This document shows, piece after piece, positions 20,415-28,075 of a DNA stretch of 64,000 nt. The stretch spans positions 128,001 through 192,000 of the forward strand of contig CBDCFW010000003.1 of NCBI GenBank assembly GCA_965216465.1, read 5' to 3'. How positions within the stretch are numbered: position 1 is the first letter of the stretch; each line of letters starts with the position of its first letter. A program made the position numbers and the translations under genes. Source of the stretch: Bacteroidia bacterium (GTDB taxonomy: Bacteria; Bacteroidota; Bacteroidia; NS11-12g; UBA9320). The notes beneath the pieces were generated by a model. The model did no database searches, was not told the DNA's origin, and saw only the letters and a program-made list of their open reading frames with translations.

Positions 20415-20692
20415 TTGGGATTGGCTTCAGTTTTCCATCGTTGTACCTGCTGAAAAAGTAAAGCTCCTATTAGTCTGCGACTGACCGCTTTTTTATATGA
20501 ATTCTAATTGAAAACGGATTACTTTCAGTGATCCGTCCTTATCCGTGTTGAAAAAGCAAAGCTCCTTCAGTCTGCGACTGTTCGCTTTTTTTTAGGTGTA
20601 TTCTAATTGAAAACGGATTACTTTCAGTGATCCATCCTTATCCGTGTTGAAAAAGCAAAGCTCCTTCAGTCTGCGACTGAATGCCTTTTTCA
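20415..20692 (-). repeat. tRNA-Arg-linked tandem array of 98-99 bp units
   Basis: TGAAAAAG(C/T)AAAGCTCC... recurs at 20451, 20549 and 20648; the tRNA-distal unit is degenerate. Confidence 0.92.
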
Positions 20693-20694
20693 CC

Positions 20695-20729
20695 CCATCT
20701 TAAACTGAAGCGAGCTTCGTTTAAGATGG
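20695..20729 (-). other. Conserved hairpin between tRNA-Arg terminator and array
   Basis: Minus strand CCATCTTAAAC GAAGC TC GCTTC A GTTTAAGATGG. Confidence 0.85.
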
Positions 20730-20732
20730 CAT

Positions 20733-20767
20733 AAAAAAAAGCTCTTCCAATACTTGGAAGAGCTTTT
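20733..20767 (-). terminator. Intrinsic terminator of tRNA-Arg
   Basis: AAAAGCTCTTCCAA-GTA-TTGGAAGAGCTTTTTTTT on the minus strand. Confidence 0.85.
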
Positions 20768-20778
20768 ACTTTTATTCG

Positions 20779-20852
20779 TGACCTCGTCAGGATTCAAACC
20801 TGAGACCTCTTGAGCCGTAATCAAGTGCTCTATTCAGCTGAGCTACGAGGCC
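20779..20852 (-). tRNA. tRNA-Arg(ACG)
   Basis: GGCCTCG...CTTGA TT ACG GC TCAAG...CAGGTTTGAATCCTG..CGAGGTCA cloverleaf; CCA not encoded. Confidence 0.95.
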
Positions 20853-27662: not shown

Positions 27663-27737
27663 GGTGGTTGTAGCTCAGTTGGTTAGAGCACTGGTTTGTG
27701 GTTCCAGGGGTCGTGGGTTCGAATCCCATCTTCCACC
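27663..27737 (+). tRNA. tRNA-His(GTG)
   Basis: G-1 plus GTGGTTG...CTGGT TT GTG GT TCCAG...GTGGGTTCGAATCCCAT CTTCCAC, C73 discriminator. Confidence 0.95.
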
Positions 27738-27742
27738 CAAAG

Positions 27743-27774
27743 AAAAAGGTCTCGCGGTAGCGAGGCCTTTTTTT
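27743..27774 (+). terminator. Intrinsic terminator of tRNA-His
   Basis: AAAAAGGTCTCGC-GGTA-GCGAGGCCTTTTTTT. Confidence 0.85.
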
Positions 27775-27780
27775 ATTCAA

Positions 27781-27813
27781 CCATTTTCTGCAAGCTCGCT
27801 TGCAAGAAAATGG
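27781..27813 (+). other. Conserved hairpin between tRNA-His terminator and array
   Basis: CCATTTTCT GCAAGC TC GCTTGC A AGAAAATGG. Confidence 0.85.
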
Positions 27814-27828
27814 GGAATAAAAAAATAA

Positions 27829-28075
27829 GCCTTGTAAAGGCTCCTTTTTCTTTGAAGGCCCAACAGAAGATATAGGGATAAACGCAGTTAATCCTTCTTT
27901 CGCAGTTCAATTAAATTGGGAAGGGTTGCCTTGTAAAGGCTCCTTTTTCTTTGAAGGCCCAACAGAAGATATAGGGATCAACGCAGTTAATCCTTCTTTG
28001 GTAGTTCAATTAAATTGGGAAGGGTTGCCTTGTAAAGGCTCCTTTTTCTTTTGCAGGTTGAATAGATGAAATCGT
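27829..28075 (+). repeat. tRNA-His-linked tandem array of 99 bp units
   Basis: GCCTTGTAAAGGCTCCTTTTTCTTT at 27829, 27928 and 28027; the first two units are nearly identical and the third decays. Confidence 0.93.

Follow-up and report, generated by a model that had tools for sequence, protein, structure and literature searches.

What kind of element is a small hairpin that stands, with the same tip, behind two different tRNA genes, each time at the head of a tandem array? The two hairpins lie in a 64,000-nt stretch of the genome of a Bacteroidia bacterium (hereafter, the window), one behind a tRNA-Arg gene and one behind a tRNA-His gene. The initial annotation, made from the sequence alone, had described them as a conserved hairpin with a bulged A on the 3' side and matching CCAT/ATGG ends, and had suggested a protein-recognised site in single-stranded DNA (ssDNA) or cruciform form that may seed the array. 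Our analysis bore out both hairpins and their shared tip, in sequence and in fold. On the - strand (20695-20729), the Arg hairpin reads CCATCTTAAAC-GAAGC-TC-GCTTC-A-GTTTAAGATGG, then GG; on the + strand (27781-27815), the His hairpin reads CCATTTTCT-GCAAGC-TC-GCTTGC-A-AGAAAATGG, then GG. Folding as ssDNA gave -12.3 kcal/mol for both, far better than shuffled sequences (Arg: z = -6.7, with an equal fold in 0 out of 200 shuffles; His: z = -4.6, with an equal fold in 1 out of 200). Pairing continues beyond the Arg hairpin into the adjoining T run and A run (20686-20738) and beyond the His hairpin to 27768-27825. Each hairpin sits between the tRNA terminator and a 99-nt tandem array, so the annotated position, after the terminator and before the first unit, holds at both loci of the window (Table 1).

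Table 1. Coordinates of the features at the tRNA-Arg and tRNA-His loci of the window
Feature	Positions	Strand	Evidence
tRNA-Arg (ACG) gene with the module in its 3' flank	20778..20852	-	ARAGORN; Rfam tRNA, 59.8 bits
tRNA-Arg terminator hairpin, 14-bp perfect stem, then T run on the - strand	20737..20767	-	Inverted repeat, arms 20737-20750 and 20754-20767
Arg hairpin: variable stem, AAGCTCGCTT tip, 3'-side bulged A	20695..20729	-	Sequence, fold, inverted repeat
Arg tandem array, about 2.6 units of 99 nt	20418..20694	-	Repeat analysis
tRNA-His (GTG) gene	27664..27738	+	ARAGORN; Rfam
tRNA-His A-rich trailer, terminator hairpin (GGTCTCGC/GCGAGGCC) and T run	27740..27774	+	Sequence, fold
His hairpin: tip as at Arg, 3' bulged A	27781..27815	+	Sequence, fold, inverted repeat
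His tandem array, 2.3 units of 99 nt	27829..28051	+	Direct and inverted repeats

In each unit of the Arg array, a small hairpin is combined with the mirrored tRNA trailer and a pseudo T-arm (GGAT...TAATCC); in the His array, each unit contains CCTTTTTCTTTG, the tRNA-His trailer CAAAGAAAAAGG in inverted form. Homology between the two modules extends through trailer, terminator, hairpin and units, with a local alignment score of 98 against a shuffle mean of 35 and a shuffle maximum of 54. Since even the trailer and terminator are shared, the whole module, rather than the hairpin alone, was copied between different tRNA genes. This paralogy also accounts for the common CCAT/ATGG ends, which the initial annotation had taken for a conserved feature: by our own reading, they occur at the two paralogous window loci and in none of the other hairpins listed, and a search for the CCAT...ATGG pattern matched, within the genome, only these same two loci. 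The exact 10-mer tip is likewise confined to the Arg and His hairpins in the window, and allowing one mismatch gave 10 matches against 4.4 expected, a count reached by 4 out of 100 shuffles and so no excess over chance.

We rejected a coding role for the arrays: the longest open stretch in the Arg array spans 35 aa, and the ORFs at the His array, 59 aa at most, share sequence with the tRNA or the repeats. In an Rfam search of the window stretch, tRNAs alone reached the gathering score, and the hairpin matched no family. Phe_leader matched weakly, and antisense to the tRNA genes, at 27740-27836 (-) and 20672-20770 (+); the scores of 37 and 30 bits fall short of the cut-off (55), and we take these matches as a chance resemblance of two neighbouring hairpins to an attenuator. 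One short-read contig joined 20535 to 20635 and thereby skipped one 99-nt Arg unit, which may reflect repeat collapse (three DNA runs at a depth of about 2-3), and we base no conclusion on it. A second joint, between 27739 and 27966 with a side of 28, is too weak to use. Arrays of this kind break short-read assemblies and can be mistaken for arrays of small-RNA genes or for CRISPR-like repeats.

The genome that contains the window (G000) is 100% complete. In a survey of its repeats with Tandem Repeats Finder, seven tRNA genes proved to be followed directly by arrays with units of 99-125 nt, and all seven flanks have a common layout of tRNA, A-rich trailer, terminator, T run, hairpin with variable stem, A run and units. 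The exact AAGCTCGCTT tip follows the terminator of six of these genes (Arg-ACG, His, Ser-TGA, Ser-GGA, Pro-TGG and Pro-GGG), and the hairpin of tRNA-Val carries the variant tip AAGCTTCGCTT. Genome-wide, there are 157 AAGC-N2-3-GCTT cores; six have complementary flanks, and all six of those lie behind tRNA genes. Judged by eye, the two Pro modules resemble each other, as do the two Ser modules.

Other tRNA flanks in this genome showed related or neighbouring features. Behind tRNA-Asn(GTT) (G000:C4:8564), terminator and T run lead to a hairpin with a palindromic tip of another sequence (GAGCTAGCTC), and an A run and a mirror of the trailer come next. The T-arm, acceptor end and trailer of the tRNA-Asp gene at C6:383088 of G000 are partly duplicated behind that gene. 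Behind tRNA-Leu(CAA) (G000:C1:167601-168586), a pseudo T-arm and a repeated tRNA-Leu 3' end stand ahead of a tandem array (2.3 units of 428 nt); each unit has an ORF of about 115 aa, the product of which resembles, by eye, a four-helix bundle of the '23S rRNA intervening sequence' kind. At G000:C6:445784-447434, 17 tRNA genes of differing identity are tightly clustered on one strand and have the look of a phage-type array; the hairpin is absent from all 17.

Comparison of hairpins from many loci, drawn from the scan described below, showed that the stems are specific to each locus yet remain paired, with a value of 6.3 for cognate arms and 1.9 for non-cognate arms. When we aligned 24 hairpins without internal gaps, 91.9% of the cells paired, against 72.7% in 500 shuffles, none of which reached the observed value, and pairing fell to 44-55% when the partners were slid against each other. 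At 15 of the 21 pairs in this alignment, both sides had changed, which substantiates the earlier observation, made on the two window loci, that the lower stems differ and stay paired. Arm-to-arm template switching can, according to published work, create covariation in a DNA palindrome without selection. An identical tip across distant families, on stems that have been replaced, would require selection or recent spread.

The departures from perfect pairing strongly favour one side: in 57 out of 58 hairpins, the 3' side is the longer one where the stem is first interrupted below the core, the extra base or bases being mostly A; a single A lies one pair below the core in 15 of the 58, and GT stands opposite TAA three pairs below the core in 12. 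The 3'-side bulged A of the initial annotation was therefore right as to the side, whereas the position of the bulge varies by class. Unpaired and loop bases comprise 370 purines and 92 pyrimidines. The 207 mismatched oppositions (one spurious locus, L082, included) contain 112 of the G.A/A.G type, 42 G.T and 11 A.C, and purine-purine oppositions outnumber pyrimidine-pyrimidine ones by 142 to 12. The 3' arm has 64 extra bases and the 5' arm has 18, again with L082 included. By our own reading, two loci with a reversed tip (L059 and L104) keep the bulge in tRNA orientation, with only the central TC flipped to GA, and a third (L042) is inverted in its entirety. Neutral decay of a palindrome predicts equal numbers of purine-purine and pyrimidine-pyrimidine oppositions, so the asymmetry indicates that the fold of the tRNA-sense strand matters. 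On these sequence patterns, the best reading is that the hairpin would be used as a folded single strand of tRNA-sense polarity, and DNA or RNA would fit alike. For the proposed ssDNA or cruciform site, the asymmetry says only that one strand, the tRNA-sense one, is the strand that folds; it does not favour ssDNA or a cruciform over RNA.

The hairpin is the symmetry centre of a larger imperfect palindrome made up of tRNA tail, trailer, terminator, hairpin, mirror, pseudo T-arm and, sometimes, a direct repeat of the tail. Beyond the hairpin arms, a mirror of the tRNA tail, trailer and terminator scored better than all 30 shuffles in 44 out of 56 loci, and the tRNA tail recurred as a direct repeat, again beating all shuffles, in 13 out of 56. 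The tip stands 45-64 nt behind the tRNA 3' end in these 56 loci. About 95-121 nt past the tip, most of 58 loci have an AATCC-type T-loop end with the cognate T-stem, preceded by an enlarged loop that often contains a hairpin; these T-loop-end copies reproduce the tRNA-specific variants ATTCC, AGTCC and AATTCC. The inserts consist of 100-180 nt of hairpins and mirror sequence. The order of copies is plainest at L025, where a direct repeat starts in the T-loop and ends with the T run; by hand count, about 52 nt of it seem identical (25 nt aligned without mismatch), and the second copy continues into a diverged 5' arm of the hairpin. The resulting order is direct-inverted-direct, with joints at the tip and at a modified T-loop. 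In several arrays, the inner units begin inside or beside the hairpin. The idea that the site seeds the array gains from this position and from the central place of the hairpin in the palindrome, around which the repeated unit is built. The array junctions vary in position relative to the hairpin, so that a fixed cutting site is not visible.

We scanned one genome per prokaryote species, in a strand-neutral manner, for a T run, the tip and an A run, and obtained at least 120 loci; all figures on distribution depend on the exact 10-mer. Among the 120 matches listed, a tRNA gene ended 20-110 nt upstream on the same strand in 51 and was reversed in 3, and at least three further loci (L035, L047 and L089) had only a leftover tRNA 3' end ahead of the terminator. 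Nearly all tRNA identities were represented among the matches listed. We judged 43 of the first 80 listed loci, those with titles, to be real hairpins by eye; their labels named Bacteroidota lineages in 41 cases (including Chitinophagaceae, Flavobacteriaceae, Crocinitomicaceae, Saprospiraceae and Bacteroidales), Sphingomonadales in one and 'uncultured bacterium' in one. The pattern matched in 7 out of 401 evenly sampled genomes of the phylum and was linked to tRNA genes in three: the window genome; G362, with three tRNA-linked loci; and G270, with one locus that has a reversed tip and forms a perfect palindrome. Five further carrier genomes had about one to six loci each, so that the hairpin is usually multi-copy where present. 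Two cultivable carriers, Robertkochia flava and Myroides sp. DW712, are among the matches listed. The numbered genomes that we count as carriers are G000, G031, G045, G046, G047, G270 and G362, against 27 congeners without the tip. In viral contigs the pattern matched 88 times; no tRNA lay within 300 nt of any of these matches, and the module architecture was likewise absent.

Closer to the window genome, only one of 40 relatives (G031, from another family) had the hairpin, behind tRNA-Cys and ahead of an array of units of about 86 nt. The hairpin was absent from all 19 congeners with a readable tRNA-His flank, and by our own reading most of these 19 share a lipoprotein gene downstream of tRNA-His. 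Three congeners (L158 in G001, L148 in G018 and L150 in G017) carry insertions of about 65 nt in this flank, without the AAGCTCGCTT tip and with a common GTGCYGAG...AGT motif; the L158 and L148 insertions are bounded by direct repeats of the tRNA-His 3' end and terminator. In the congener G024 (L257 1128-1400), a tRNA-Arg(ACG) gene is followed by a like architecture with a two-unit array of about 120 nt and an unrelated tip, CAAAGTTTACTTTG. Five congeners have one exact copy each of its 14-mer; we retained only these five matches, as counts at one mismatch were not above a reversed-pattern control. Together, the G024 and tRNA-Asn flanks, with tips of their own, show that the architecture extends more widely than AAGCTCGCTT and that this tip is not obligatory for it.

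A covariance-model search of the genome, seeded with one structural class and with the best 150 of about 1,400 candidates scored, recovered three of the seven known loci here; its single extra match led to the variant tip in G024. We left this search out of the distribution figures. For 18 loci submitted to Rfam, only tRNA scored above the gathering threshold. The element was not described in the main texts searched, and a full-text search for the 10-mer gave only unrelated papers; Rfam has no entry for it. In the main text of a MITE survey (PMC11602168), tRNA appears once, in the reference list, and the word 'hairpin' does not appear.

We considered two kinds of enzyme that might read such a hairpin. 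The Y1 transposase family PF01797 had 0 matches in the 100%-complete window genome, with a control that was positive in 6 out of 14 genomes. The other kind is the small GIY-YIG ssDNA nuclease of the Ssn type, for which the hairpin would be a recognition motif (SRM, or Ssn-related motif). For Ssn enzymes, cleavage of ssDNA has been described next to the hairpin repeats flanking their genes (PMC11893778). The niche is indeed shared: mini GIY-YIG genes stand directly behind a same-strand tRNA gene in 50 out of 79 loci (L177-L255), which are dominated by Bacteroidota, and gene and hairpin occur together at L025 and L060. The tip lies within 1.5 kb at only 2 of the 79 GIY-YIG loci; tblastn found a GIY-YIG gene at only 2 among the 121 listed scan loci that were searched; the carriers G045 and G047 have only long GIY-YIG matches (450-608 aa); at least 10 congeners that lack the tip carry mini GIY-YIG genes; and the window genome has only a truncated one. 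In addition, the degenerate SRM pattern, as given in PMC11893778, matched 0 out of 128 hairpin windows on both strands. These counts largely refute the Ssn-motif reading, and we regard it as highly improbable. For the proposed protein-recognised site, we thus found no recognising protein: the Y1 transposase is missing from the genome, and mini GIY-YIG genes are not associated with the hairpin.

The truncated gene of the window genome (G000:C6:327269-327418, about 50 aa, then TGA) lies 40 nt behind tRNA-Phe and begins right past the terminator, in the slot that the hairpin occupies at other tRNA genes. At L060, the GIY-YIG gene is followed by a partial tRNA-Pro copy in which a 16-nt palindrome replaces the T-loop.

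The main rival to a DNA-level element is a structured RNA of about 100-130 nt, derived from read-through or from a processed 3' trailer, with a factor that binds the tip and thereby affects tRNA 3' maturation, termination or stability. In such an RNA, pairing between the trailer and its mirror copy would close a junction holding the terminator hairpin, a long hairpin (with a CUCG-type loop and purine-rich internal loops) and a third small hairpin. Predicted minimum-energy folds of the Arg, His, Ser-TGA, Val and Pro-GGG flanks are multi-branched and closed by trailer and anti-trailer, as this model would have it. All the irregularities are in the tRNA sense (42 of G.U type against 11 A.C, 370 purines against 92 pyrimidines, and the 3' bulge in 57 of 58), covariation is strong, and the distance of 45-64 nt behind the tRNA 3' end is constant. 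An RNA thus explains the polarity as well as the DNA reading does. It fits poorly with three other sets of facts: the hairpin lies past a strong intrinsic terminator, whose U run forms half of the basal helix; the pattern is linked to tRNA genes in just 3 out of 401 sampled genomes, and 19 congeners lack the hairpin at their orthologous tRNA-His flank, which would be odd for a tRNA-processing signal; and both the direct repeats of the tRNA tail and the tandem amplification are DNA-level events. Nor does Rfam hold a matching family. We therefore consider the RNA explanation unlikely, while giving it more weight than any other rival.

Another rival would make the module an inert scar, left by integrative elements or by spontaneous inverted triplication (of the tandem-inversion-duplication [TID] or ODIRA type) between two natural quasi-palindromes, with the arms kept complementary by template switching within the palindrome and the tip shared only by common descent. 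Integrases leave tRNA-tail repeats that start in the T-loop, and the congener insertions L158 and L148 are flanked by tRNA-His tail repeats without the AAGCTCGCTT tip. The direct-inverted-direct structure, the junctions at the hairpin and T-arm, and the irregular array junctions are also as a scar would leave them. But the mismatch spectrum and the shared tip do not suit this explanation. Neutral decay predicts equality of the opposition types, and we counted 142 purine-purine against 12 pyrimidine-pyrimidine oppositions, while the extra bases fall mainly on the 3' arm (64, against 18 on the 5' arm). More than 50 stems from several families, unrelated in other respects, bear an identical 10-nt tip; the spacing is constant, with the tip 45-64 nt from the tRNA end and the pseudo T-arm mostly about 95-121 nt after the tip; and no element genes lie between the repeats. 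We accordingly hold an inert scar to be quite unlikely.

The explanation that we tentatively favour is that the hairpin is the conserved core of a gene-less, duplicative DNA module in the tRNA 3' flanks of a minority of Bacteroidota. Its architecture, its restriction to tRNA tails, the covarying stems and their one-strand irregularities, the paralogy between modules of different tRNA genes, and a rare but multi-copy occurrence are what we observed. A module runs from the tRNA tail, beginning in the T-loop, through the A-rich trailer, terminator and T run to the AAGCTCGCTT-tip hairpin, and on through the A run and mirror to a pseudo T-arm with an enlarged loop, after which a direct copy of the tRNA tail sometimes follows. 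Spread and growth would be DNA-level processes. The hairpin and its T-arm-like counterpart may serve as turn-around points for template switching or fold-back copying, and fold-back copying would yield direct, inverted and direct copies of the tRNA tail; slippage or unequal recombination might then expand them into arrays of 99-125-nt units. Slippage or unequal exchange fits the irregular array junctions better than a fixed enzymatic cut. The invariant tip would presumably be read by some factor, and the single polarity of all the irregularities suggests that the hairpin is used as the folded tRNA-sense strand, features equally expected of read-through RNA from the tRNA gene. In the window genome, all copies lie behind tRNA genes, and we found neither a candidate enzyme nor an autonomous partner that carries the hairpin. 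A more specific version of this duplicative-module explanation, which we think improbable, would make the module the trace of an undescribed kind of DNA copying: a piece of tRNA tail, closed by the AAGCTCGCTT tip and by a lineage-specific enlarged T-loop, would form a dumbbell-like or otherwise folded single-stranded intermediate, be copied, and be re-inserted by homology to tRNA genes. That would be a gene-less, tRNA-anchored counterpart of recombination of the attC or CTX-phage type, with an unrecognised enzyme.

The flanks of tRNA genes are the main landing sites of mobile DNA, and small non-coding structures in them are seldom catalogued. The present element unites an invariant tip, covarying one-sided stems and an obligatory mirror copy of the tRNA tail. 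If read by a protein, it would represent a new system of hairpin-specific recognition, useful for ssDNA or RNA tools; if it spreads without a reader protein, it would offer a clear example from nature of tRNA loci shaped by palindrome-driven duplication.

Several known systems share parts of this description. The 178-bp repeats behind E. coli tyrT, together with rtT RNA, are arranged in tandem directly behind a tRNA gene and contain a copy of the tRNA 3' end. In this respect they resemble the arrays reported here; they are enterobacterial and are not known to have a hairpin with a conserved tip or a mirror copy, which sets them apart. The attL/attR repeats of integrative elements and their gene-less remnants (CIMEs) likewise involve a direct repeat of the 3' part of a tRNA gene that starts in the T-loop. 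By contrast, the insert here is 100-180 nt long, without integrase genes, element genes or their debris, and it also holds the tail in inverted form, arranged around a conserved hairpin; the same architecture and spacing recur at more than 50 loci.

Inverted triplications are close in the order of their copies. In Salmonella, TID gives direct-inverted-direct order, and both TID and ODIRA have copies in that order joined at short inverted repeats, as in the modules described here, where a mirror copy was found in 44 out of 56 loci. For ODIRA, the published model gives the same order with junctions at quasi-palindromes (PMC4689423). Those events, however, are sporadic and kilobase-scale, with arbitrary junctions, whereas the junction hairpin here is conserved and has strand-specific irregularities.

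Among hairpin repeats, REP, BIME and REPIN sequences with their RAYT transposases are similar in being intergenic hairpins beside terminators that are thought to act as folded single strands. REPs carry a GTAG or CGTC tag (PMC3733652). They are conserved over their full length in many dispersed copies, whereas here the tip alone is conserved, in six to seven copies that all lie behind tRNA genes. We rejected a REP/RAYT reading, as the Y1 transposase and dispersed copies are absent and the stems are unrelated. The Ssn repeats (NTS/SRM; PMC11893778) are likewise oriented hairpin repeats read as ssDNA, and GIY-YIG genes share with the present hairpin the niche behind tRNA genes in Bacteroidota; however, the SRM flanks a single-domain GIY-YIG gene (cd10448-type), whereas the present hairpin and such genes do not co-occur.

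The comparison with integrons extends to both the fold and its position. The hairpin studied here has extra-helical bases on one strand (the 3' side being longer in 57 out of 58), stems that vary and stay paired, and a place at the joint of tandem units. Integron attC sites are imperfect palindromes at the joints of tandem units, in which structure is kept while sequence varies and extra-helical bases on one strand give polarity; they have conserved boxes at the stem base (RYYYAAC/GTTRRRY), an integrase gene with attI beside the array, and cassettes that carry genes. In contrast, the conserved block of the present hairpin is the tip, its stem base is a T run and an A run with variable sequence instead of core sites, and its units are 99-125 nt long, contain no credible gene and are tied to the tRNA tail. 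Repeats of tRNA tails, hairpin repeats and inverted triplications are thus each known singly, and what is new is their combination with a conserved tip.
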